Under the pieces are notes generated by a model, which saw nothing but the letters and a program-made list of their open reading frames with translations, ran no database searches and was not told where the DNA came from. Positions 797 to 50,983 of a stretch of DNA of 64,000 nucleotides are shown piece after piece (the stretch's first letter is position 1; every line of letters starts with the position of its first letter). Origin of the DNA: Naegleria gruberi (lineage: Eukaryota); the NCBI GenBank assembly GCA_000004985.1, contig GG738891.1; one strand, 5' to 3'. Made by a program: the position numbers and the translations under genes.

Positions 797-1803
797 CTCT
801 GTTGGGATTGTTGTATTAGAAGTGTATCAATTTTGTTTGTTTTTGAAAATTGCTATTGAGCCAAACGAATTTCATCGAAACCAAGCGAAACAATATGGTG
901 GGAAATTTTTACTTTTCTTGTCACACACCTTCCCTTTGTGAATTGTCAAACTGTGACAGCGCTAAATCCAAATCCATAAGCTAGAACAGAAAAAGGCTGA
1001 TAATACACCATTGTTGACACTAGTAGCATCTTTCGTCCACTTTAAGCTAAATTTCTCCACCAATTTCACTATTGTTTTGGATTTAAGCAACTGTATTGTG
1101 TAACCAACAACTTTTTAGAATCGTATGTCCACGTCTTTGATGCTTGTAATACCTTGAAAATTAGCATGAAACCAATTATGCATTTCGAATAACAAAAAAG
1201 AATAAAACTGACCATATAAAAGGAATTTTGAATGTCCATAACAACAGAATCAAACCATATTGTTAAATAAATCACACTGTCCTCTAATACCGAATTACTC
1301 CGTTTTCTTATGCATCCTTAACTAATACTAAAAAACAATTCTATTTAGTAATGTGCCATTTTGACAAGTTTGCATTTGTCTTGAGATTTCACTCAGATTT
1401 TTTCATCCCACTTAAACATCCAATAAATCATGAAGTGATTCTTGAAAATATTTCCAATTTGTAAAACGTGTCATTTAATCACAAATCTTCAGAATCCTGC
1501 AAAATTTCACTCTTTGCAATATTTTGAAGAAATTTCTTCTTTTTCTTAATATTTAGAGGTAAATTTTTATAAAAGATGGAGTGGTTCAATAGTATTTTCT
1601 AATTCTCAGTTTTACTGTAAATTTCAAAAGGAATGTTTCGTCAGCAGTTTAGTTTATAAAACTAAATGAAAAATGTTAATTGATTTTAAATTTTTGGAAA
1701 GTGGACGAATATGAGGAAAATCCAAAATTAAATTGAATGAGATTGATTTTCAAAGGTAAATAAGGGAGCGGTAAAAATAGATTTCAAACACATCCTTAAA
1801 AAA

Positions 1804-3306
1804 ATGAAACCGAAATGTTGTATTGGAAATGTTTCGAATACTACAACTTGGACGTTTAGTTCAATAATGAAGAGCATTCCGATAGAAGTTATACAACACA
1901 ATATTTTCCCCTATATGGAACATGCTGATTTGAAATATTGTAGATTGGTTTGTAAACTGTGGGACGAATTTTGCCGAAACACATCAACATTTATTCTATT
2001 GAATGTTCAATTAAAATTTGATGAAGAACTGTTTCATTTAAACAGAAAAGGATTCGGTTTCCACGATTGGACAATCAACAAATTGAAAATTGTAAATAAT
2101 AATATTGACTATGAATATATTTATCAGATTTTAAGAGAAATTAAACGAAAGAGCGATTTGGAACATTTAATTTTGGATAAAAGAATTGATTTCAATCAGC
2201 CAATGAGTCAACTGGTATTAAATTTCCCAAATTTGAAACATTTTTCTATGAACAGCACAAATCTCACCAATCATGCTGGTTTGATTCGAATAGTTTCCAA
2301 TCTAGAAAGTTTAAAACTAAGAGTAATGAATTTGGAAAAGGACTTTCTTCTAAACTTGACCAATAATTTTGGATCCAATTTGGTAAAACTCAAAATTGGA
2401 GCAAGTTTTATTGGAAATGAACATTTATCATGTTTGACAAGCTGTAAACAAGCAAGAAATTTGAAATGTTTAGAAATTGTTTCAAGGAGACATGAAAAAT
2501 TTAACATTGAGGCTAATTTTAGTAATTTTAAGGAAGTGGAAGAGCTGAGTTTGGAATTTGGTGATGCCAATGGCGAAGCTTGTTTGAATGAAATTGTAAA
2601 GATTGAGAATTTGAGAGTTTTATCCTTATCGAGGATGAATCTGGGTGATATTTCTAAACATTTTGAAAAACTGAAGAGATTAGAAAGTCTTTCACTTCAT
2701 AATTGTAATTTTAAAGGATTGAATCAAGTTTACAAATTGCAGAGATTGAAATGTTTGAGTATTAAGGGAGGCACACTGGATGAGCAGGATGTTGTGGGAA
2801 TTTCACAATTGGAGTTGACTAAATTGGCTTTGGATCGTTGTGGAATCTCTGCAGATTTGATTTGTAAACATTCAAGAATGAATTCTTTGAGGGAACTTTC
2901 TCTAACAGGAATTCCGCTCACTGAGGAAGCAATTTCAATAATAGGCAGAGAATTTACCCAATTGAGAACACTCTCCATTAGTTCAATATCAATGGAAAAG
3001 GAAAAACTTCAAAGATTGTTAAGAAATGATTTGTTTAGCTCTCTAAGAAATCTCTCCCTCATATCTTGCAATCTCAATGATGATCATTTGGAAACAATCT
3101 TGGACACAACAAGTATTCTTTCCAGATTATCCAATCTCAATATTGATTTGAATGATTTTTCAGAGAATTCCCTCAAATCTTTGCAAAATCAAAATGCTGC
3201 CTCAATGACAACCATTTCTACCCGATCTAGAAAGTCCAGTTTCAGCAATTCTGATCGACCTACCTCTCCCAAAAGAAGAGAAAAACAAGGATGTCTATTC
3301 CAATAA
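1804..3306 (+). CDS. F-box/LRR-repeat protein (FBXL/AMN1-like), 500 aa.
   Basis: Real ATG at 1804 after an A-run. N-terminal F-box-like segment (IPIEVIQHNIFPYMEHADLKYCRLVCKLW). Many Cys-containing leucine-rich repeats follow (LxxLxLxxCxxI pattern). Confidence 0.6.
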   Translation: MKPKCCIGNVSNTTTWTFSSIMKSIPIEVIQHNIFPYMEHADLKYCRLVCKLWDEFCRNTSTFILLNVQLKFDEELFHLNRKGFGFHDWTINKLKIVNNNIDYEYIYQILREIKRKSDLEHLILDKRIDFNQPMSQLVLNFPNLKHFSMNSTNLTNHAGLIRIVSNLESLKLRVMNLEKDFLLNLTNNFGSNLVKLKIGASFIGNEHLSCLTSCKQARNLKCLEIVSRRHEKFNIEANFSNFKEVEELSLEFGDANGEACLNEIVKIENLRVLSLSRMNLGDISKHFEKLKRLESLSLHNCNFKGLNQVYKLQRLKCLSIKGGTLDEQDVVGISQLELTKLALDRCGISADLICKHSRMNSLRELSLTGIPLTEEAISIIGREFTQLRTLSISSISMEKEKLQRLLRNDLFSSLRNLSLISCNLNDDHLETILDTTSILSRLSNLNIDLNDFSENSLKSLQNQNAASMTTISTRSRKSSFSNSDRPTSPKRREKQGCLFQ

Positions 3307-27826: not shown

Positions 27827-29613
27827 TTAAAGAACAGTGACAGTCTTGGCCAAATTTCTTGGTTTGTCTGGATCGTGACCACGGAGAAGAGCCAATTCGT
27901 AAGCAACCAATTGGAGTGGAATATTGGCCAACAAGGCACTGAAAATACCATTAGATGGAACATCAATAACATAGTCAGCTTCATGGGATGGAATCTTATC
28001 TGGAATATCAGTAATAGCTACAGTATAAGCACCTCTTGATTTGATTTCAGCAGCAGCTGTCATATTCATCTTAAAGTACTTGTCATCAAGAATGAAAACA
28101 AAAATAACAGTTCCTGGTTCAATAAGGGCGAATGGACCATGTTTCAAGGCACCAGATGAGTAACCTTCGGCGTGAGTGTAAGTAACTTCCTTAACCTTCA
28201 AAGATCCTTCATAAGCAACAGCTTCACCATAACCCTTACCCAACATGAAAAGAGTATTGCCCTTCATGTTATAAATATGTCTGGCAATATGTCTACACTT
28301 CTCTCTAACTCTGCTCAAAACCATACCTGCACTAGTTGGCAAACGATGGAGGTATTGAATAATGGCTTGACGATGTTGAAGTTGGAATTTTGGTGATCTG
28401 TTTTGAGCAAACCACAAACCAATCAATGCCAAAACAGTAACTTGGCAAGAGAATGCCTTGGTTGAGGCAACAGCAGTTTCACGACCAGCATTAATATACA
28501 CACCACACTTTGTAGTTCTAGCAATAGTTGAACCGACACGATTAACGCAGGAGAAGCTTGGAACGCTCAATTGTTCTGCAATATAAATACATCTCAAAAC
28601 ATCAGCTGTTTCACCACTTTGTGATAAAACCAAAAGGCCAGAATTTTCAGGGCAAAAATGTGATTCCTCAAGTTCAGCACCATCAATAACTTGGATAGTC
28701 TTGAAGCATCTCAAATCTCTGAAAATTTGAGCACCATAGAGACCAGCATAGTAACTAGTACCACAACCAGCAATAACCAAATGTTCAATACCAGATAACC
28801 ATTCCTTATTATCATCCAAACCACCCAATTTAACATGACTATCATCACTAATTCTACCACCAAAATTCAAAGATCTTGAAATTGATTCAGGTTGCTCCAA
28901 AATTTCACGAATAGTCCAGTGAGCATGTGGATGAGGAGTCTTTTCAATCTTTTCTTCTTCAACAACAATCTTTCTTTCATAAGGAAGAGTAACACCTTCA
29001 GAGGTAATGACAGCAATTTCATTATTTTCCAAACTGATCATTTCTCTAGTGTACAATCCGAATGCAGAACTTTCGGAAGCAACAAACATCTTACCTTGTG
29101 AAACACCGACCAAGAGAGGAGAACCATTTCTGGCTACAACCAAACGATCTGGTTCAACTGTAGACATAATAACCAAACCCCAAGTACCTTCCAAATGTTT
29201 AGTAGTCTTGAGAACGGCCTTTTCAACAACATCTTGCTTCATTCCATCCTTTAACATTTGGTCCAAATAGACACCAATCATTTGAACAATAACTTCAGTA
29301 TCTGTTTCACTCTTGAATTTAATTCCGTGCTTTTCTATCAATTCCTTTTTCAATTCACCAGAATTTTCAATGACACCATTGTGAACAAGAATCACACGAC
29401 CAGATTGATCCATGTGAGGGTGAGCATTCATATCAGTTTTAGCTCCGTGAGTAGCCCATCTAGTGTGAGCAATACCAATACTATCATTTCCGTGTGTATG
29501 TAAAGTTTCTCTCAATCTCTTAAGAGCATCACTTGTTGTTTGAGAACTGGCATATTTAGTTGTGTGGAAGCAAGGTTCTCCCTTATCGTTTTGTCTTAAG
29601 NGTTGCAATACCT
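27827..29613 (-). CDS. GFA1: Glutamine--fructose-6-phosphate aminotransferase (GFA1/GFAT). The 5' end is truncated by an assembly gap.
   Basis: Diagnostic blocks are present: GIAHTRWATHG, the SIS-domain blocks CGTSYYAG and LSQSGETADV, and the C-terminal block LAKTVTVL. The N-terminal Cys1 glutaminase region lies in the N-run. The expressed-gene codon bias is strong (ggt, gct, aag, ttc). Confidence 0.85.
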
Positions 29614-29663
29614 NNNNNNNNNNNNNNNNNNNNNNNNNNNNNNNNNNNNNNNNNNNNNNNNNN
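29614..29663. other. Assembly gap. A run of N is present, plus an isolated N at 29601.
   Basis: Ambiguous bases in the sequence. Both flanking genes lose their 5' ends here, so the true gap is larger than 50 nt. Confidence 0.95.
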
Positions 29664-30738
29664 GAAGATGTGGAAGTCACCAAATGGTACTATTAGAAAC
29701 ATTTTGGGTGGTACTGTCTTCAGAGAACCTATTGTTATTGAAAACATTCCAAGATTAGTTCCTGGATGGACTCAACCAATTGTTATTGGTCGTCACGCTC
29801 ATGGTGATCAATACAAGGCTACTGACTTGGTTATTGGCGAACCAGGAAAGATGGAACTTGTTTTCACTCCAAAGAATGGTGGTGAAACTCAAAGATACAC
29901 TGTCTTCAACTTTGAAGGTTCTGGTGTTGCTATGGGAATGTACAATACTGATGAATCTATCAGAGATTTTGCTTACTCATGCTTCCAATTGGCTGTTGAC
30001 AAGAAATGGCCATTGTACTTGTCCACCAAGAATACCATCTTGAAGGCTTATGATGGTAGATTCAAGGATATCTTCCAAGAAATCTATGAAAAGGAATTCA
30101 AGACTAAATTCACTGAATTGGGTATCTGGTACGAACACAGACTTATTGATGACATGGTTGCTCAAACTTTGAAGAGTTCTGGTGGTTTCATCTGGGCTTG
30201 TAAGAATTATGATGGTGATGTCCAATCCGATATTGTTGCTCAAGGTTATGGTTCTTTGGGTTTGATGACTTCTGTCTTGTTGTGTCCTGATGGTAAGACT
30301 GTTGAAGCTGAAGCTGCTCACGGTACTGTTACTAGACACTACAGAGAACACCAAAAGGGTAAGGAAACCTCCACCAACCCTGTTGCCTCCATCTTTGCTT
30401 GGTCTCGTGGTTTGGCTCATCGTGCTAAGCTCGATGGTAATGCTGAATTGGCCAAGTTCTGTGATGCTTTGGAAGCTGCCACTATTGAAACTATCAGAGC
30501 TGGTAAGATGACCAAGGATTTGGCTATCTGTGTTCACGGAAACAAGTAAGTTTTTTCACACACGACAGATTTTCTAATTATTATTTTATTATTAATTATT
30601 TGATATTGTGATGATATTAATATTGAAAATTTGCATGATTATTATGGATAAACAGTGTTGATCGTTCTCAATACCTCAACACCAATGATTTCATGGCTGC
30701 TATTGATGAAACTTTGAAGAGTAAGCTCGGATTGTAAG
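29664..30738 (+). CDS. IDP: NADP-dependent isocitrate dehydrogenase. The 5' end is truncated by the gap. Exons are 29664..30545 and 30655..30738.
   Basis: The protein aligns by eye along its whole length to eukaryotic NADP-IDH ([54 protein letters not shown]). The last exon ([27 protein letters not shown]) is joined across a 109-nt GTAAGT..ACAG intron. It matches the conserved IDH C-terminus. Confidence 0.85.
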
Positions 30739-31049: not shown

Positions 31050-33570
31050 ATGACAACTGAATTGGCTGATGAAGTAGAAACCATCAGAAAGACCTTTCCA
31101 ATTCTATTACACGATGAGGAATTTTCAGATGGAGCCATGCACGTCTCTCTTCGTTATTCGGAACGTGGTAATATCGTAGAGGCTAATCTGTGTTGGGATT
31201 GTAACATGTCATTAGAGGATTTTGTAAATAATACTTGTTGTAATGAATATCATTTGCCAATTTATTTAAAAGATAGTATTACTCATCAATTGTATGAATT
31301 AGTTAGAGAGAGACAATTAGTGAGAAATGATCAAATTACTTGTGATTTTTTCCAATCAACTTTTAGACATCAAGATGATGATGATGAGGAATTGAAACAA
31401 CAAGAAGAACAACAGGCACATGTACAATTTGGACAAGCAATTGATGATTATCGGGATGATGATGATGATGAAGAAGGAGAAGGATGTGATGATGATGATG
31501 ATGATGATGATTATTATTACGATTCGGAAGATAATGAAGATGATGTGGAACAAGACAATGATGAAGAAAATAATGATGAAGATTATTCGGAGGAGGAAAT
31601 TACAGAAGAAGAGGCAACAACTGAATCTGATATTGGAACTTATACAACAACTGAATCGACAATAATAGAAACTGAACAGCATCCAATGAACTTTTCACAA
31701 TTTTACAAGGTTTTTCATTCAAGTGCTACTAGTCAAATTACCTTGACCAAAGTAGCAAATGATTTAAAGTGTGTATATCAGGATAAATATCAAGAAAGAG
31801 ATAGAGGCATTAATCAAATTCAAAAAGAGTATGTTTTATTGAATTTTGAACTCTGAGTCATTTATCACAATTTTATCTAAATTTCACAATAATTATTATA
31901 GACATAGAGATGGAGTTGAACAAAATAATGAAAGAATTGATCAGGTTCAACAAATGGTTCTTGATCACATGAAAGAATTGGAAGAATTTGAGGAAAGATG
32001 GAATTTAGAATTGAGTGAATTGAGAACGAATATCAAACAAACTTTTTGGAATTTTGTGCATGATTTTGAAAAGGATGAAGATAAATCCAAACCAAAAAAC
32101 AAGCAATCCAACACTGTTAGGAGTAAGGAAGAACTCCTACTACCAGGATTCAGATTGATGGAACCAAGAGGCAAACAATTTGAACTTTTATTGAGAAATG
32201 AATTACAAGAAAAGTCAAATACTCAGATTGTTTCAAAATTCGCCTACTTGAAAAGTATTTTAAAGAGAATTAAAAAGAAATCTAATTCTCCAAAGGTTAC
32301 TGTCAATGATCCTTGGACCGTTGTTGAGGATTATGATGCCATTGAACATGTTCAATCAAGTTCGAGTACTCATTCTAACAATCCAGCATCTAGTCAAGAG
32401 CTTGCTAAATCTGCCCTCAACTCTATCAAAATATTCATGAAGAGTCTTTTCAGGGATAACAGATTACTGACAGATATTCCACGATTGATTCAAAATGAAA
32501 GATTCCACGTCTTGTCCTTCTACAAGAAGATTGAACGAATGTATCTCGAGTCAGATGAAATTTTCAGTCCATATGATGATTCATTTGTTTTCATTGAGGA
32601 TGAGAGTGAGAAGGAGGATCCAAACAAGAGATTGTGTGGAAGAATATTTGTAATTTACACTGCTGATATGAGCGATTGTATTTCTAAAAACTACAAGAAG
32701 GATGAAGAGGAAAGAGACTATGAGGAGGAGTATCTTTTATTCAAAACTAGACACTTGTACAATTTGTATCAATCTAGATTGAGTGCACTTGTGGTGAGTA
32801 GTTGCATTCATGATGATCCACAGGATGAGAATGATTCTACCATGAATCAACAAGTTCTCTCTTGGACTATGAGGGACATGGAGAGAATTTCATTTGAGGC
32901 CAATCATGGACAAGGCCCAGATTTTCATTTCCCATCCCTCAATGATCAAGTTTCCCAAATGAAAAGAGACATTAGAAGAAGGTTGAAGAGACAGGAGGCC
33001 ATTGATTTGGGCGAATATTATTTGACCAAACATTCAAATCTGAGTTATGCCAATTGCCTATTCCATATGGTTGCACAATTGGATTCCAAAAAGGAGCATA
33101 ATCTCGACGATTACAACAAGATTCTTCAAGCATACTCAAATATTATAGATGAATGTAGAAATATGGGTATTAGAAATTTATCTATTCAATTACCACTCTC
33201 ACTATCTTACAAACATCCTAAAATTGATGGAAATTTACCAAATGGAGATACTATTATATTGCAAATTAGGGATATTATGAAGATTTATTTAAAGAAACAG
33301 AAAGAATATGGATCATGGTTCCTCCCTAATCTATTCTTCTATTGTCCAAAGAATCCAAAACATTCATCAGGAGATTTCCAATGTCAGTGTCACTATTCCA
33401 TTCTCAAAACATCAGATGATATTTTACATGTTTCAGGTAGTGAAAATTCAGACAATCGCTATGAAGAAAGTCACAATGAGAATGATAATCTTCACAAGTA
33501 CATTGTTGAACCATTCTTCAAATCTTATTTGAATTCCAATATTCAATTACCACCTTCATGGATGCAATAA
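31050..33570 (+). CDS. Hypothetical acidic protein of about 830 aa with a poly-Asp tract. Exons are 31050..31838 and 31902..33570.
   Basis: The two track ORFs are joined in frame by a 63-nt GTATGT..TATAG intron. No known domain recognised. The (GAT)n tract encodes D8-D9. Confidence 0.45.
31486..31512 (+). repeat. (GAT)9 coding microsatellite, giving poly-Asp in the acidic protein.
   Basis: Direct tandem triplet in the sequence. Confidence 0.9.
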
Positions 33571-33663
33571 AACTTGAACAACGTTTGTTCTTAAAATATC
33601 TCATTAACTTTTTCATGTTAAATTGAAAAGTGTGTAAATGTACATTGTGAGTTAATATTTATT

Positions 33664-34728
33664 TTACAAATCATCATTAAATCTATCCAATCCAGCATCT
33701 TGATTTGAATGCATTGATGTAAACATGGATCTAATTGACTTTTTAGGTTTTGCTTGTTTAGAATTAGGATATCTCCATTCAGGATTCGGTTGATAAGTTT
33801 CAAAAGTTCTCAATACTTTTACCAAATGTTGAAAACACTCCTCAACATTCTTTCTAGTTTTTGCCGAAACATAATAAATCGGACATGATAATTTCAATTC
33901 ATTCTTGACAATCATTGAAATTGTCTTTTCTGGAATATGACTCATCAAATCACACTTATTTCCAACAATTACACATGGAAAATCCAAATTATCTAGAGTA
34001 GGACATGGCCTATATTTATCATTCTTTATCGATCTAATTTGCTCAATAAATGGTTGAAGTCTACGAAGTGATTCATCTGCTCGAGAAACATCAAAAACTA
34101 GAATAAATCCATAACATGATTGCATGTAGGATTGTCTTAGTGCCTAGTTTCGAATAGTTTCAATTGAAATAGATATGATTATAATCAGTCCATGAAATAT
34201 TATAATAATTGAGTAATACTATTTCAATATATATAGTTACCTTATAATCATCTGCATTACAATAAATTGTAAATAATTAGGATCATTATTATATTCGAAA
34301 GTATACTTACCTTGTCCGGCAGTATCAATAATTTCCATTTCCAAACTCAAATCATCATATTGTCTCTTTACATAAAAACTCGTTTCAATAGTTGGATCAT
34401 ACAACTATTAAATATTTAAATATTATTACAAAAATATTACAAAATATTGTAATTGGTAATATTGTTATATTCGAAAGTGATTATTTGAAAAGAAACCTAC
34501 ATCCTCTCCTTCAAATTTATTTTGTGTATACTGGATAGTCTTTTTTTCCGAAATACGTTTATTTCCACAACTTTCGAATAATTTATTGAACCTACCACCG
34601 ATGTTTTTCCAACTCCACCATCTCCAACCTAATTGTTATTATTATTCAGAATATATTTGATGATGAAAAATTAAAACACGTACGATGGCGACTTGGTAAA
34701 AATTTACATTGTCTTTGGTTTTTGGCAT
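33664..34728 (-). CDS. Ras-family small GTPase with six exons. Exons are 34728..34684, 34628..34596, 34539..34501, 34404..34311, 34251..34241 (an 11-nt micro-exon) and 34143..33664.
   Basis: The spliced product carries VGDGGVGKTSVTIQYTQNKFEGEDLYDPTIETSFYVKRQ (G1 and switch I), DTAGQDDYKALRQSYMQSCYGFILVFDV (G3) and NKCDL and SAKT (G4/G5). The donors are GTACGT, GTAGGT (twice), GTAAGT and GTAACT. All acceptors end in AG. Each junction restores Ras-like sequence. There is no C-terminal CAAX box; the protein ends in FNDDL. Confidence 0.65.
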
Positions 34729-35918: not shown

Positions 35919-38059
35919 ATGGCTAGTGAAGTGAATATGTTGAGTGGCACATCGGTCGATTTGAATGATGAAAAGCCTTCGGATCACAAAGTACACGTAG
36001 AACCAGCACCACCACAGGCACAATCCCGAAATCCTTTCAAAAGACTTAAACAACGAAAAGAGAAGGCTAATTTGAAACATAATAGTGAAGAAATACCAGA
36101 TCCTAGGGACCCTAAAATTGGTTTTAAAGACCAAATGGTTCTATTCAAAATGTTTGGAGCAGCAAATTGGTTTTTAATCTTTTTGGGTAGTATTGGTGCT
36201 ATGGGGTAAGTAGTTTATAATGATATGATGATTCTAATGTATTTAGTGCTGGTGTTATTCCATTGACTTTCCAATTTGTTTTGGGAGATTTATTGAATTC
36301 TTTGGCTACTGCTTTTGCAGATCCTAATGCTTTGAGAGATAGTGTTAATACAATTGCTGCTAAATTTGCAGGTATTGCATTGGGTGCTTTGATTGCGAAT
36401 TTCATGATGCAATTCTTTTTGAACTGGGCTTCCGAACGTATTGCTGTTGCTTTAAGAGAAGGATATTTCAATGCTCTTACAGCTCAAGAAATGGCCTTTT
36501 TTGATATTAAGAAAGTTGGTACTCTTACTGTAGCACTCAGTGAGGATGTTGCCAAAATTCAAGATACTTATACTTTAAAGTTTGCCACATTTTTACAACA
36601 AATGACACAATCCGTAGTTGGTATTGTTCTTGCCTTTGTCAGTAGTTGGCAAATGAGTTTAGTCATGATTTCAACTTCACCATTGATGGTTGTGTTTGTT
36701 GGTGGTTTGTCACAAATGATTAAGTGGTTGACCAAAAAAACAAACGATGCCAATGAACACTCTGCTGCCATTGCTACAGAAATTATTTCTTCAATGAGAA
36801 CTGTTAGAAGTATGGCTGGTGAAATTAAAGAACAAAATAGATTTAAGGAAGATTTGAAGAAGGTTGGATTATTCGGTTTTTGGAAAGCAATGTTCCAAGG
36901 TTTAACATTTGGTTCAATTACCTTCATTCTTTGGGGTACTGTTGCTTTGGCATTTTGGGTAAGTAGTAGTATGCATTTATTTAATGATAACTGTTTATTA
37001 TTAGTATGGTGGTGGTTTGACTGTTGATAAAACTATCACTCTTGGTGATATGTTTAAGGTATTCGGTCTTATGCTTATGGGTGTTCTCGGTCTCTCCCAA
37101 GCAGGTACCTTCTTCCCAGATTTGAGTAAGGCAAGAATGAGTCAAGTTACTCTTTTGAAAGTTATTAGAAGAAGTCCAGAAATTCCATTCAAGGGTGGAA
37201 AGACTTTGGAAAATATTTCTGGTAATATTTCTATTAGAAATGTCGATTTTATCTATCCTTCTCGTCCAAATATTACTGTTTTGAAGAACTTCTCCCTTGA
37301 AATTACACCAGGTCAATCCGTAGCTCTTGTTGGTCCTTCAGGTTCTGGTAAATCAACCATTGTTGGTCTTGTTGAAAGATTTTACAATGCAAACTCTGGT
37401 CAAATCTACATTGATGGTGTTGATATTACTGAACTCGATCCAATGTGGCTTCACAGAAAGATTGGTATTGTTACTCAAGAACCAGTGCGTAAGTATCTTT
37501 TGTTTTTATGCAATTAACAATTTGGAAAATAGTTTTTGCTTGTAGTATTAGAGATAACATTGCCTATGCTGTTGGTGCCGAAAATGTTACACAAGAACAA
37601 ATTGAAGATGCTGCTAAAGCTGCCAACTGTCACAATTTCATTGTTGATCTCCCAGAAGGTTATAACACAATGTTAGGTGAAAAGGGTGTTTCATTATCAG
37701 GTGGTCAAAAGCAAAGAATTGCTATTGCTCGTGCCTTGTTGCAAAATCCATCTGTTCTTTTATTGGATGAAGCTACATCTGCATTGGATACTGAATCAGA
37801 AGCTCTCGTTCAAGCTGCTTTGGACCATTTAATGAAAGGACGTACTTCAATTTGTATTGCCCACAGACTTTCAACAGTTAAGAACTCTGACACCATTTGT
37901 GTTTTGGCTAAGGGTGTTTTGGTTGAAAAGGGTAAACATGAAGAATTGTTACAAATTGAAAATGGTGTTTACAAAAAGTTAGCTGAAAAGCAAATGATGT
38001 TTGGTAAATCAGAGAGTAAGATTGATTTGGAAGCAGTTATGGATATTATTGAAGAGTAA
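35919..38059 (+). CDS. ABC transporter, ABCB-type half-transporter (TMD-NBD), of about 670 aa. Exons are 35919..36205, 36247..36958, 37005..37488 and 37533..38059.
   Basis: Walker A reads GPSGSGKST. The Q-loop joins across the intron as [17 protein letters not shown]. The ABC signature is [14 protein letters not shown]. Walker B is [11 protein letters not shown]. The H-loop reads IAHRLST. The introns are 41, 46 and 44 nt and each restores conserved ABCB sequence. Confidence 0.8.
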
Positions 38060-49282: not shown

Positions 49283-50983
49283 ATGTTGTCATCATCATCG
49301 GGTGCTGATAATAACAACAAAAGCAGTAATAATAATAATAATAATAGAATGGATAATAGTACTAATAGCAATTGTAGCAACAACAACAACAGTAGCAACA
49401 GTAGCAATAATGTTGGTTTGGGAGGTTCTGGTAGTGCTCTGAAGGGATCGGAGGAGAAGAAGAAACAACAGGCTCCTATTAAAATTCTCAAGAAGAATGA
49501 TTTTAGACAGGATAATGATGAAGAGTTTTCAATGAGTCCAAAGTTAGTTACGAGAGGAGTTTTATCAGTTAAAATTCCACCTGCTAATGTTAATAGTAAT
49601 AATGGATCTCCCCTCCCTTCATATAAGAAGAGTTCAGCCTCGCCTTCAGCATCTTCACCACCAGCATCAGAATTATCTAAAGCTTTAGTATCATCGGAAG
49701 ATCATGATGGTCAAAGTCCATCACCAACAACATCTTCTTCTTATGAGGAGCAAGGAATTGCTGAAAATCATTTTATATTTCTTCCGAATCATAATGAATT
49801 GTTTAATCACTTTGCATTAGATATTGGTGGATCACTTGTCAAGATGGTTTACATGTTACCTTTTAGTGATAATGAATTTATTTATCAAACTCAAGATTCT
49901 GAAAGTAATGAACTTGAAGCTTATTATCATCAAGCTGTTAGTAGTGATGATGAAGAGGTTGATGGACAATTATCCATAAAATCACTTCCTCCACAATCAC
50001 CATTAATCATTTCAAAGGATGTTGATCATTTTTATGAATCTGAAAATGGTGTTAAAAAGAGAGGTTCTAAACTTTGTTTTGCTAGATTCCAAACACAAGA
50101 TATTGAACAATGTTTGAGTTTAATTGAAAAGTTACTGAAATTAGATGAATCAATAACTGGTTCATCAGAAGCTCCTTGTATTAAACATATTAATGCTACT
50201 GGTGGAGGTGCATTCAAGTTTTCAGCACTATTGAAAAATAGATTTGGTTTTGAAGTTAACAAGCTAGATGAAATGGAATCATTGATTAAGGGGTTAAACT
50301 TTTTATTGTTAAATATTCCAAATGAATCATTTACATTCACAAAGGAAAAGAAGAGAGAATACCTTTCTTTCCATGACAAGTTACATACAGATATTTTCCC
50401 ATATTTAATTGTAAATATTGGAAGTGGTGTGAGTATTGTTAGAGTTGATGATGTTGGTAAATTTGAAAGAGTTTCGGGAAGCAGTATTGGTGGAGGTACC
50501 TTCTGGGGTTTATCAAAATTATTAACAGGTTGTAATTCATTTGAGGAATTGTTGAAATTAACCAAGACTGGTGACAACAAAAAGGTTGACATGTTAGTTG
50601 GTGATATTTACGGAAGAGATTATGAAAAAATTGGTTTGAATTCTGATATTATTGCTAGTAGTTTCGGTAAAATGATTCAGTACAAAGCTGGAGAAGGTGA
50701 AGAACCAAAAGATGCCGATCTTGCTAAATCTTTATTATTTATGATTTGTAACAATATTGGTCAAATTGCCTATCTTAATGCTCTCAGATTTGGCCTTAAA
50801 AGAATATTTTTTGCTGGTTACTTTATCAGAAATCACGATGTCACAATGCACTACATTTCCTATGCCATCAACTTTTGGTCTAGGGGTGAAATTTCTGCCA
50901 CTTTTTTGAGACATGAAGGTTATTTGGGAGCAATTGGTTCCTTCCTTTCATCTCCTCAAAAAGATTCAGAAAATTCTGAATAA
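49283..50983 (+). CDS. Pantothenate kinase, type II eukaryotic PanK, with a long Asn/Ser-rich N-terminal extension.
   Basis: FALDIGGSLVKMVY, NATGGGAFKF and IVNIGSGVSIVRV are present. This is the actin-fold eukaryotic PanK (fumble) family. ATG is at 49283 after an A-run. It is a single exon. Confidence 0.8.
   Translation: MLSSSSGADNNNKSSNNNNNNRMDNSTNSNCSNNNNSSNSSNNVGLGGSGSALKGSEEKKKQQAPIKILKKNDFRQDNDEEFSMSPKLVTRGVLSVKIPPANVNSNNGSPLPSYKKSSASPSASSPPASELSKALVSSEDHDGQSPSPTTSSSYEEQGIAENHFIFLPNHNELFNHFALDIGGSLVKMVYMLPFSDNEFIYQTQDSESNELEAYYHQAVSSDDEEVDGQLSIKSLPPQSPLIISKDVDHFYESENGVKKRGSKLCFARFQTQDIEQCLSLIEKLLKLDESITGSSEAPCIKHINATGGGAFKFSALLKNRFGFEVNKLDEMESLIKGLNFLLLNIPNESFTFTKEKKREYLSFHDKLHTDIFPYLIVNIGSGVSIVRVDDVGKFERVSGSSIGGGTFWGLSKLLTGCNSFEELLKLTKTGDNKKVDMLVGDIYGRDYEKIGLNSDIIASSFGKMIQYKAGEGEEPKDADLAKSLLFMICNNIGQIAYLNALRFGLKRIFFAGYFIRNHDVTMHYISYAINFWSRGEISATFLRHEGYLGAIGSFLSSPQKDSENSE
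49327..49346 (+). repeat. (AAT)n coding microsatellite, giving poly-Asn in the PanK N-terminus.
   Basis: Direct tandem triplet. Similar AAT/AAC/CAA tracts occur in many genes (for example 13370-13430 and 4030-4070). Confidence 0.85.

Follow-up and report, generated by a model that had tools for sequence, protein, structure and literature searches.

Organization of the gene

The 64,000-nucleotide (nt) stretch of Naegleria gruberi contig GG738891.1 (assembly GCA_000004985.1) analyzed here, hereafter the window, carries on its minus strand a gene for a Ras-family GTPase that is assembled from six exons, the fifth of which is a micro-exon of 11 nt. Joining 34728-34684, 34628-34596, 34539-34501, 34404-34311, 34251-34241 and 34143-33664 yields a 702-nt in-frame coding sequence, and its 233-residue product ends in GLDRFNDDL. 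The exons measure 45, 33, 39, 94, 11 and 480 nt and the introns 55, 56, 96, 59 and 97 nt, with GT...AG termini in five of five. A first-pass annotation of the window had proposed this six-exon arrangement, including the 11-nt micro-exon and five introns of 55-97 nt, and every number in it was reproduced. The locus is very probably a protein-coding N. gruberi Ras-family GTPase gene with five short GT-AG introns, orthologous to Ras21 of Naegleria fowleri.

Exon 1 (34684-34728, 45 nt) begins with the ATG at 34728 and codes for MPKTKDNVNFYQVAI; exon 1 of the N. fowleri gene is also 45 nt, and the N terminus, MPK.KD.(I/V)N(F/Y)YQ(V/I)AI, is kept in the N. fowleri and Willaertia orthologues. Intron 1 (34629-34683, 55 nt, GTACGT...TTAG, phase 0) lies at a position identical to that in N. 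fowleri. Exon 2 (34596-34628) encodes the G1/P-loop stretch VGDGGVGKTSV and, at 33 nt, equals its N. fowleri counterpart. It is followed by intron 2 (34540-34595, 56 nt, GTAGGT...AAAG, phase 0), which contains TATTCGAAA on the gene strand and whose position is common to N. fowleri and Willaertia. Exon 3 (34501-34539) contributes TIQYTQNKFEGED and is 39 nt long in both Naegleria species. Intron 3 (34405-34500, 96 nt, phase 0), also shared in position with N. fowleri, holds ACTTTCGAATATAACAAT and TTACAATATTTTGTAAT, each of which resembles intron 4. Exon 4 (34311-34404, 94 nt) supplies LYDPTIETSFYVKRQYDDLSLEMEIIDTAGQ and the first base of the following codon, and covers switch I (G2) and G3.

Intron 4 (34252-34310, 59 nt, GTAAGT...GCAG, phase 1) is lineage-specific and creates the micro-exon. 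The micro-exon itself (exon 5, 34241-34251), ATGATTATAAG, completes the split Asp codon and adds DYK at the start of switch II. Translation of the joined exons confirmed that it is the source of the switch II residues DDYK, read as (G)AT GAT TAT AAG directly after DTAGQ. Both of its flanks are canonical splice sites (GCAG^ATGATTATAAG^GTAACT, where the caret marks an exon-intron junction). Retention of intron 4 introduces a stop, and a transcript that skips exon 5 loses the reading frame; the micro-exon is a predicted constitutive coding exon. Intron 5 (34144-34240, 97 nt, GTAACT...CTAG, phase 0) is shared in position with N. fowleri and holds TTATAATCAT at 34175-34184 and TATTCGAAA near its 3' end. 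Exon 6 (33664-34143, 480 nt, including the TAA stop at 33664-33666) encodes the remainder of switch II, the G4 motif NKCD, the G5 motif SAK and a cysteine-free tail of 45 residues.

The protein model is correct but already known. Herman et al. (2021; BMC Biol 19:142, PMC8296547) manually re-annotated all Ras-superfamily genes of N. gruberi, and the 233-residue model is letter-identical, from MPKTKDNV to FNDDL, to the corrected "Ras" entry XP_002673397.1 in Additional file 10 (Table S8) of that work. This entry carries one asterisk, which in Table S8 marks a manually corrected model, two asterisks marking a newly created one. Because the asterisk denotes manual correction and the sequences are identical, the reference model XP_002673397.1 was wrong and the model proposed here is the curated one. 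The N. fowleri sheet pairs the entry with Ras21 (NfowleriV212_RP30), and the entry has no pseudogene flag, no extra domain and no orthologue outside Heterolobosea. The passages of the article consulted are silent on how the gene is divided into exons, on the 11-nt exon and on where that exon came from. The first-pass annotation had also held that gene finders routinely miss such exons; this agrees with the manual correction of the reference model, although the error corrected there need not have been the micro-exon. What is new is the suggestion, a modest addition, that the micro-exon exists through an extra intron absent from relatives.

Membership in the Ras family

The protein matches the Pfam Ras profile PF00071 with E = 2e-35 (122.1 bits; cut-off 21.6), the match spanning residues 13-185 of the protein and positions 2-160 of the 162 in the profile, and its best solved relatives in the PDB are H-, K- and N-Ras (E about 1e-29). 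These matches, together with the colinear N. fowleri orthologue described below, exclude a chance open reading frame (ORF). All G motifs are present, namely GDGGVGKT (17-24), YDPT (41-44, within YDPTIE), DTAGQ (66-70), NKCD (136-139) and SAK (167-169), and the G-motif columns are invariant in an alignment of 40 sequences. The AlphaFold (AF2) model of the N. fowleri orthologue served as a structural proxy for the N. gruberi protein. In that model the predicted local distance difference test score (pLDDT) exceeds 90 over most of residues 9-191, and the chain is disordered beyond about residue 200. A Foldseek search with it returned K-, H- and N-Ras as top matches, with template modeling (TM) scores of 0.82-0.89 normalized to the PDB target.

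Compared with human H-, K- and N-Ras, the N. gruberi protein retains the equivalents of Gly12, Gly13 and Gln61, the YDPTIE effector core, NKCD and SAK. It differs from H-Ras in the effector loop, which reads YDPTIETSF in place of YDPTIEDSY (Asp38 to Thr, Tyr40 to Phe), and in two insertions, one of 2 residues ahead of switch I and one of 10 residues that separates helix 3 from strand 5; the Ala11 position of classical Ras is occupied by Asp. Unlike the three human proteins, it has neither a CAAX box nor cysteines in the hypervariable region. The lack of a prenylation motif and the FNDDL end noted in the first-pass annotation were confirmed by inspection of the sequence, in which a CAAX box, CC/CXC and Gly2 are all absent and the last cysteine is residue 177 of 233. 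A CAAX box is likewise missing from the orthologues and nearest paralogues, and is present in other heterolobosean Ras proteins (P0012, ending in CTLL, and P0108, ending in CCIM). The tails of N. gruberi, N. fowleri and Willaertia have in common NPEW(K/R), a basic patch and an acidic-aromatic end (GLDRFNDDL, GLDRFEDDGL and DLYFDMDNN, respectively).

Two other assignments were considered and rejected. At the Ras Gln61 position the protein has Gln (DTAGQ) instead of the Rap-type Thr (DTAGT), and the curated list of Herman et al. (PMC8296547) gives three separate Rap1 genes for N. gruberi. RJL was rejected on a score of 38.9 bits against the N. gruberi RJL of Table S8 (PMC8296547), compared with 97-102 bits against HRAS, RIT1, RALA and RAP1A. 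The comparison with Ras, Rap and RJL proposed in the first-pass annotation places the product in the Ras family, with RJL and Rap excluded, and its view that this is not a classical membrane-anchored Ras or Rap appears to hold, there being no CAAX box, no Gly2, and Gln rather than Thr. Pairwise BLAST with these reference sequences cannot separate Ras, Rit, Ral and Rap for a protein this divergent, with RIT1 scoring 102 bits and HRAS 100 bits.

Rit1 and Rit2 (Rin) are CAAX-less Ras-family GTPases with a non-lipidated, basic C-terminal tail, in which a polybasic/Trp cluster is found. The N. gruberi protein resembles them in combining a Ras-family G domain with a non-lipidated, basic tail, but its tail closes in the acidic-aromatic motif and there is no evidence of orthology. 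The safest label would be that of a divergent, heterolobosean-specific Ras-family paralogue, which matches the conclusion of the curators in Herman et al. (PMC8296547).

With an intact P-loop, switch I Thr, catalytic Gln of DTAGQ, NKCD and SAK, the product would work as a conventional GDP/GTP switch. A normal cycle sensitive to GTPase-activating proteins is expected because the Gly12, Gly13 and Gln61 equivalents are kept. Prenylation, palmitoylation and myristoylation signals are lacking. The tail most likely directs localization by binding a partner protein or by electrostatic contact with the membrane, and not by way of a lipid anchor.

Orthologues and synteny

The N. fowleri orthologue, FDP41_006383 (P0001, Ras21), is a protein of 261 residues that matches the N. 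gruberi product over its full length by BLASTP (E = 1e-101, 60% identity; 69% in a three-way alignment). The Willaertia magna orthologue (P0003) follows at 52% identity, with more distant heterolobosean paralogues ranking below it. The sole entry with 100% identity (P0002) is a 153-residue ORF fragment of the last exon from a metagenome. Two scans of Joint Genome Institute (JGI) metagenomes recovered no closer orthologue, just generic Ras genes at 28-52% identity. A homology search with the N-terminal 74 residues gave 94 candidates without recovering the N. fowleri orthologue and was uninformative.

Exact spliced mapping of the N. fowleri protein to its own locus gave exons of 45, 33, 39, 105 and 564 nt. 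Exons 1 to 3 have the same lengths as in the window, four intron positions agree, and 105 nt is the sum of the 94-nt exon 4 and the 11-nt micro-exon of N. gruberi. The two proteins also share the same start, an identical DTAGQDDYKALR, the 10-residue loop insertion before G4, the absence of a CAAX box and a GLDRF-DD-L end. They differ in that the N. fowleri gene has longer introns (87-257 nt), lacks intron 4 and carries a 28-residue Ser-rich insertion in its tail. Orthology is supported by a common neighbor, since a gene for glutamine-fructose-6-phosphate aminotransferase (GFAT) adjoins the N. fowleri orthologue and also lies downstream of the window gene on the same strand (27830-29569, 93% identity).

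An automated prediction from a Logan assembly (P0004, N. fowleri-like, 199 residues) has a spurious start, MLHHAQIITETQ, and is missing everything before ALRYNYMNSC. The P-loop, switch I and DTAGQ exons are thereby absent, so that short 5' exons can be missed even where there is no micro-exon. On the Willaertia contig JBEGDK010000142.1 (L002 3946-5919), an F-box-like gene with a RasGEF domain lies 150 nt downstream of the orthologue on the same strand, and its product could be the cognate exchange factor. No RasGEF ORF adjoining the gene was noticed in N. gruberi or N. fowleri.

Support for the splice model and coding status

The splice pattern was evaluated against all GT-AG combinations across the exon 4-exon 6 region that are in frame and stop-free (n = 26, including the proposed one), scored with a profile hidden Markov model (HMM) of 37 Ras homologues from which the gene under study and its two orthologues had been left out. 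Alternative splicing had been named in the first-pass annotation as a check on the model, and the proposed pattern outscored all 25 other options, reaching 198.1 bits against 185.7 bits for the runner-up, a variant with a 32-nt exon; the best patterns without the micro-exon reached 175.9 and 172.9 bits. That a different pattern is real or predominant, for instance the 32-nt exon formed through a donor at 34219 or a single intron deleting the micro-exon region, would change switch II and is highly improbable. The 25 other combinations do exist, the 32-nt-exon variant still scores well, and variants with a single intron lie at 170-176 bits, but the proposed pattern is 12 to 25 bits ahead of all alternatives and its donors, GTAAGT and GTAACT, are better matches. 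It is also the only pattern that produces DTAGQDDYKALRQSYMQSCYGF, which aligns without gaps to H-Ras, and it produces the DTAGQDDYKALR stretch that is identical in the N. fowleri orthologue. The curators of Herman et al. (PMC8296547) arrived independently at the identical sequence.

A second view of the locus comes from a 2472-nt metagenome contig (European Nucleotide Archive (ENA) ERZ929261, run ERR1078381, PRJEB11402; hereafter L003) that corresponds to window positions 32009-34490 with 98.4% identity, 21 mismatches and 4 gaps. That sample therefore contains, in L003, either another haplotype of N. gruberi or a strain close to it. Across the 585 nt of exon 4, the micro-exon and exon 6, the two sequences differ by 1 substitution, which is synonymous (TTG to TTA), with the micro-exon and the 480-nt exon 6 identical in both. 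The overlapping 86 nt of intron 3 show 3 substitutions and 2 indels, and the 59 nt of intron 4 show 4 substitutions and one 3-nt indel with GT and AG kept, so that introns 3 and 4 together have 7 substitutions and 3 indels in about 145 nt; the 97 nt of intron 5 show no differences. Every GT and AG dinucleotide in the compared part of the gene is intact. Real exons and introns subject to purifying selection are expected to differ in just this way.

The same comparison bears on the notion that the locus is a decaying, unexpressed pseudogene, a paralogue within the large Naegleria Ras expansion whose intact frame is fortuitous. The N. gruberi Ras family numbers about 80 genes and the curated table marks some members as pseudogenes (PMC8296547), but six exons all in frame, with every G motif intact, are hard to reconcile with decay. 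Orthologues with microsynteny are maintained in N. fowleri and Willaertia, the gene has no pseudogene flag in the same table (PMC8296547), and the contrast between a single synonymous exon change and the divergence of introns 3 and 4 points to constraint; a pseudogene is accordingly a very remote prospect. Some points do weigh against the reading of the locus as a functional gene with this structure. The published model (PMC8296547) is homology-derived and hence not independent experimental proof. A spliced 233-residue product from RNA assemblies was not found in the protein collection searched by BLASTP. The splice pattern is a prediction backed by sequence comparison, and function and localization are likewise predicted from sequence.

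Origin of the micro-exon

The N. fowleri gene reads GGCCAAGATGATTACAAA^GTGAGT unbroken where the N. gruberi gene reads GGACAAG^intron 4^ATGATTATAAG^GTAACT, and both encode DTAGQDDYK. Exon 4 of N. gruberi corresponds to the 5' 94 nt of exon 4 in N. fowleri, which is 105 nt long; the micro-exon exists because the 59-nt intron 4 splits, at an AAG^A site, what in N. fowleri is one exon. Neither the N. fowleri nor the Willaertia orthologue has intron 4, and the exact site is also empty in the N. lovaniensis and Willaertia paralogues. The insertion point, CAAG^ATGA, fits an MAG^R proto-splice site, and its uninterrupted N. fowleri counterpart is CCAAGATGA.

Intron 4 aligns to an internal part of intron 3, through ACTTTCGAATATAAyAAT (18 nt) followed by TTACAAT.T.TTGTAAT (17 nt). 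The alignment score of 40 was reached by 0 of 2000 shuffles (mean 20, maximum 36), a comparison of intron 4 with 2658 window tiles gave intron 3 as its best non-self match, and in L003 the score rises to 48. No residual similarity was detected between orthologous introns of N. gruberi and N. fowleri, and the likeness of introns 3 and 4 is therefore probably young. A family of introner-like elements was not supported, as the 18-nt block occurs nowhere else in the window and just one other intron-like candidate there (1123-1247, see below) carries the 9-mer TTTCGAATA found in introns 3 and 4.

We consider it probable that intron 4 was gained in the N. gruberi lineage. That it was copied specifically from intron 3 is possible, at chances somewhat short of even. 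In the converse history, a less likely but substantial alternative, an ancestral intron 4 disappeared from N. fowleri and Willaertia, and a shared functional motif or chance, not copying, accounts for its resemblance to intron 3. Intron loss is common in intron-poor lineages, the Willaertia orthologue has lost introns 3 and 5 as well, and an N. lovaniensis paralogue has a phase-1 intron just 6 nt upstream of the intron 4 site. An ancestral intron 4 would, on the other hand, require two independent losses, and an 18-nt near-identical block with a colinear 17-nt block is hard to maintain for so long without recent copying or conversion. Three further points count against a gain by copying. With the 9-mer TTTCGAATA taken out, introns 3 and 4 of the window haplotype are no more than marginally similar (p about 0.05-0.09), and only in L003 is their similarity clearer (p about 0.001-0.004). 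The ancient introns 2 and 5 carry the 9-mer as well, in inverted orientation, and it may therefore have a function instead of recording common descent. The polarity of gain versus loss is based on just two other species. The scheme that we favor remains a gain of intron 4 in the N. gruberi lineage, possibly as a copy of part of intron 3, for which support is moderate.

Introns in the paralogues from N. lovaniensis (L005, P0006) and Willaertia (L006, P0007) lie near, not at, the positions of those in the gene under study. One is in phase 2 inside the Thr codon of (S/A)(V/I)TIQ, compared with phase 0 just before that codon, and another is in phase 1 in the Gly codon of DTAGQ, compared with phase 1 in the Asp codon two residues on. 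Either sliding of introns or separate insertions close to the same sites could account for these offsets.

Intron gain by copying of an intron of the same gene has reportedly been described in Oikopleura under a reverse-splicing or intron-transposition model. The N. gruberi case resembles that model in that intron 4, at an AG^R proto-splice site, is similar to another intron of the same gene, and differs from it in that the similarity is partial (about 47 columns) and statistically moderate, with no family across the window. The main text of a survey of introners mentions neither Naegleria nor Discoba (PMC9860276). Micro-exons of at most 15 nt have been described in plants as misannotated and evolutionarily conserved (PMC8831610). 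As in those cases, a very short, apparently constitutive coding exon lies within a conserved domain and an automated reference model needed correction, whereas the N. gruberi micro-exon is lineage-specific, being created by an intron that the sister species lacks.

A repeated 9-mer and candidate pairing elements

The 9-mer TTTCGAATA occurs 9 times in the window, where 0.97 copies are expected, and 4 of these copies fall within the gene. They lie at 34148-34156 (plus strand, intron 5), 34292-34300 (minus, intron 4), 34468-34476 (minus, intron 3) and 34572-34580 (plus, intron 2), and thus run forward on the gene strand in introns 3 and 4, whereas those of introns 2 and 5 are inverted. This arrangement would allow the copies flanking the 39-nt and 11-nt exons to pair. 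The copies are kept in L003 despite differing adjacent intron bases. The other five copies in the window have no wider context in common. The only other GTATGT...AG intron-like candidate with the 9-mer is at 1123-1247 (plus), upstream of an F-box/leucine-rich repeat (LRR) ORF at 1804-3306. The shorter TTCGAA was tried as a general mark of introns or non-coding sequence and rejected, with 22 of 36 copies inside long ORFs, near the 74% ORF fraction of the window.

The micro-exon (ATGATTATAA, 34242-34251) has a perfect 10-nt complement in intron 5 (TTATAATCAT, 34175-34184), with a chance probability of about 0.01; the N. fowleri gene has just a 6-nt match to the micro-exon sequence. Helices between the micro-exon and intron 5, and between the intron 4 and intron 5 motifs, are present in the predicted minimum free energy (MFE) and centroid folds. 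Unusual stability of the pre-mRNA was not supported (z-scores of -1.1 and -0.96). The motif copies and the complement, all post hoc observations, may weakly suggest relics of intron copying or splicing-related pairing. The fuller scheme, in which intron 4 is a recent copy of part of intron 3 and the 9-mer copies and micro-exon complement act as pairing elements that order or assist splicing, is unlikely as a whole.

Introns of 55-97 nt are probably each recognized singly, by intron definition, and the 11-nt exon would for this reason need no exon-definition machinery. The two introns that flank it are probably removed one after the other.

Genomic context

The G+C content of the window is 30-39%. 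An annotated N. gruberi protein is matched at 100% identity by the single-exon ORF for pantothenate kinase at 49283-50983. A convergent gene at 31846-33570 (plus) has an Fy-3 (FERRY Rab5-effector subunit 3) domain, and its stop is 93 nt from that of the GTPase gene. Upstream of the GTPase gene, on the opposite strand, lies a multi-exon ABC-transporter-like gene (35919-38059, plus). An ORF at 31050-31856 (plus) has a long Asp/Glu-rich stretch and no Pfam match. Runs of N at 29601 and 29614-29663 mark the junction of the 5' end of GFAT (minus, ORF 27827-29683) with an NADP-isocitrate dehydrogenase-like ORF (29560-30549, plus), and the overlap of the two ORFs is probably an artifact of an assembly gap or masking.

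Significance

An 11-nt exon can be recovered by reading the sequence alone, here in a gene with an erroneous public reference model. The protein itself is unremarkable within a very large, lineage-specific expansion of Ras genes; the supplementary text of Herman et al. (PMC8296547) counts 80 Ras-family genes for N. gruberi and over 40 for N. fowleri. The corrected protein being already in the literature, the catalogue gains nothing new. A modest interest lies in the intron that makes the micro-exon. To our knowledge, Discoba have been little sampled for intron gain. If the history favored here is true, a species-specific short intron that resembles its neighbor and makes a micro-exon would be a clean, datable intron gain in this group.

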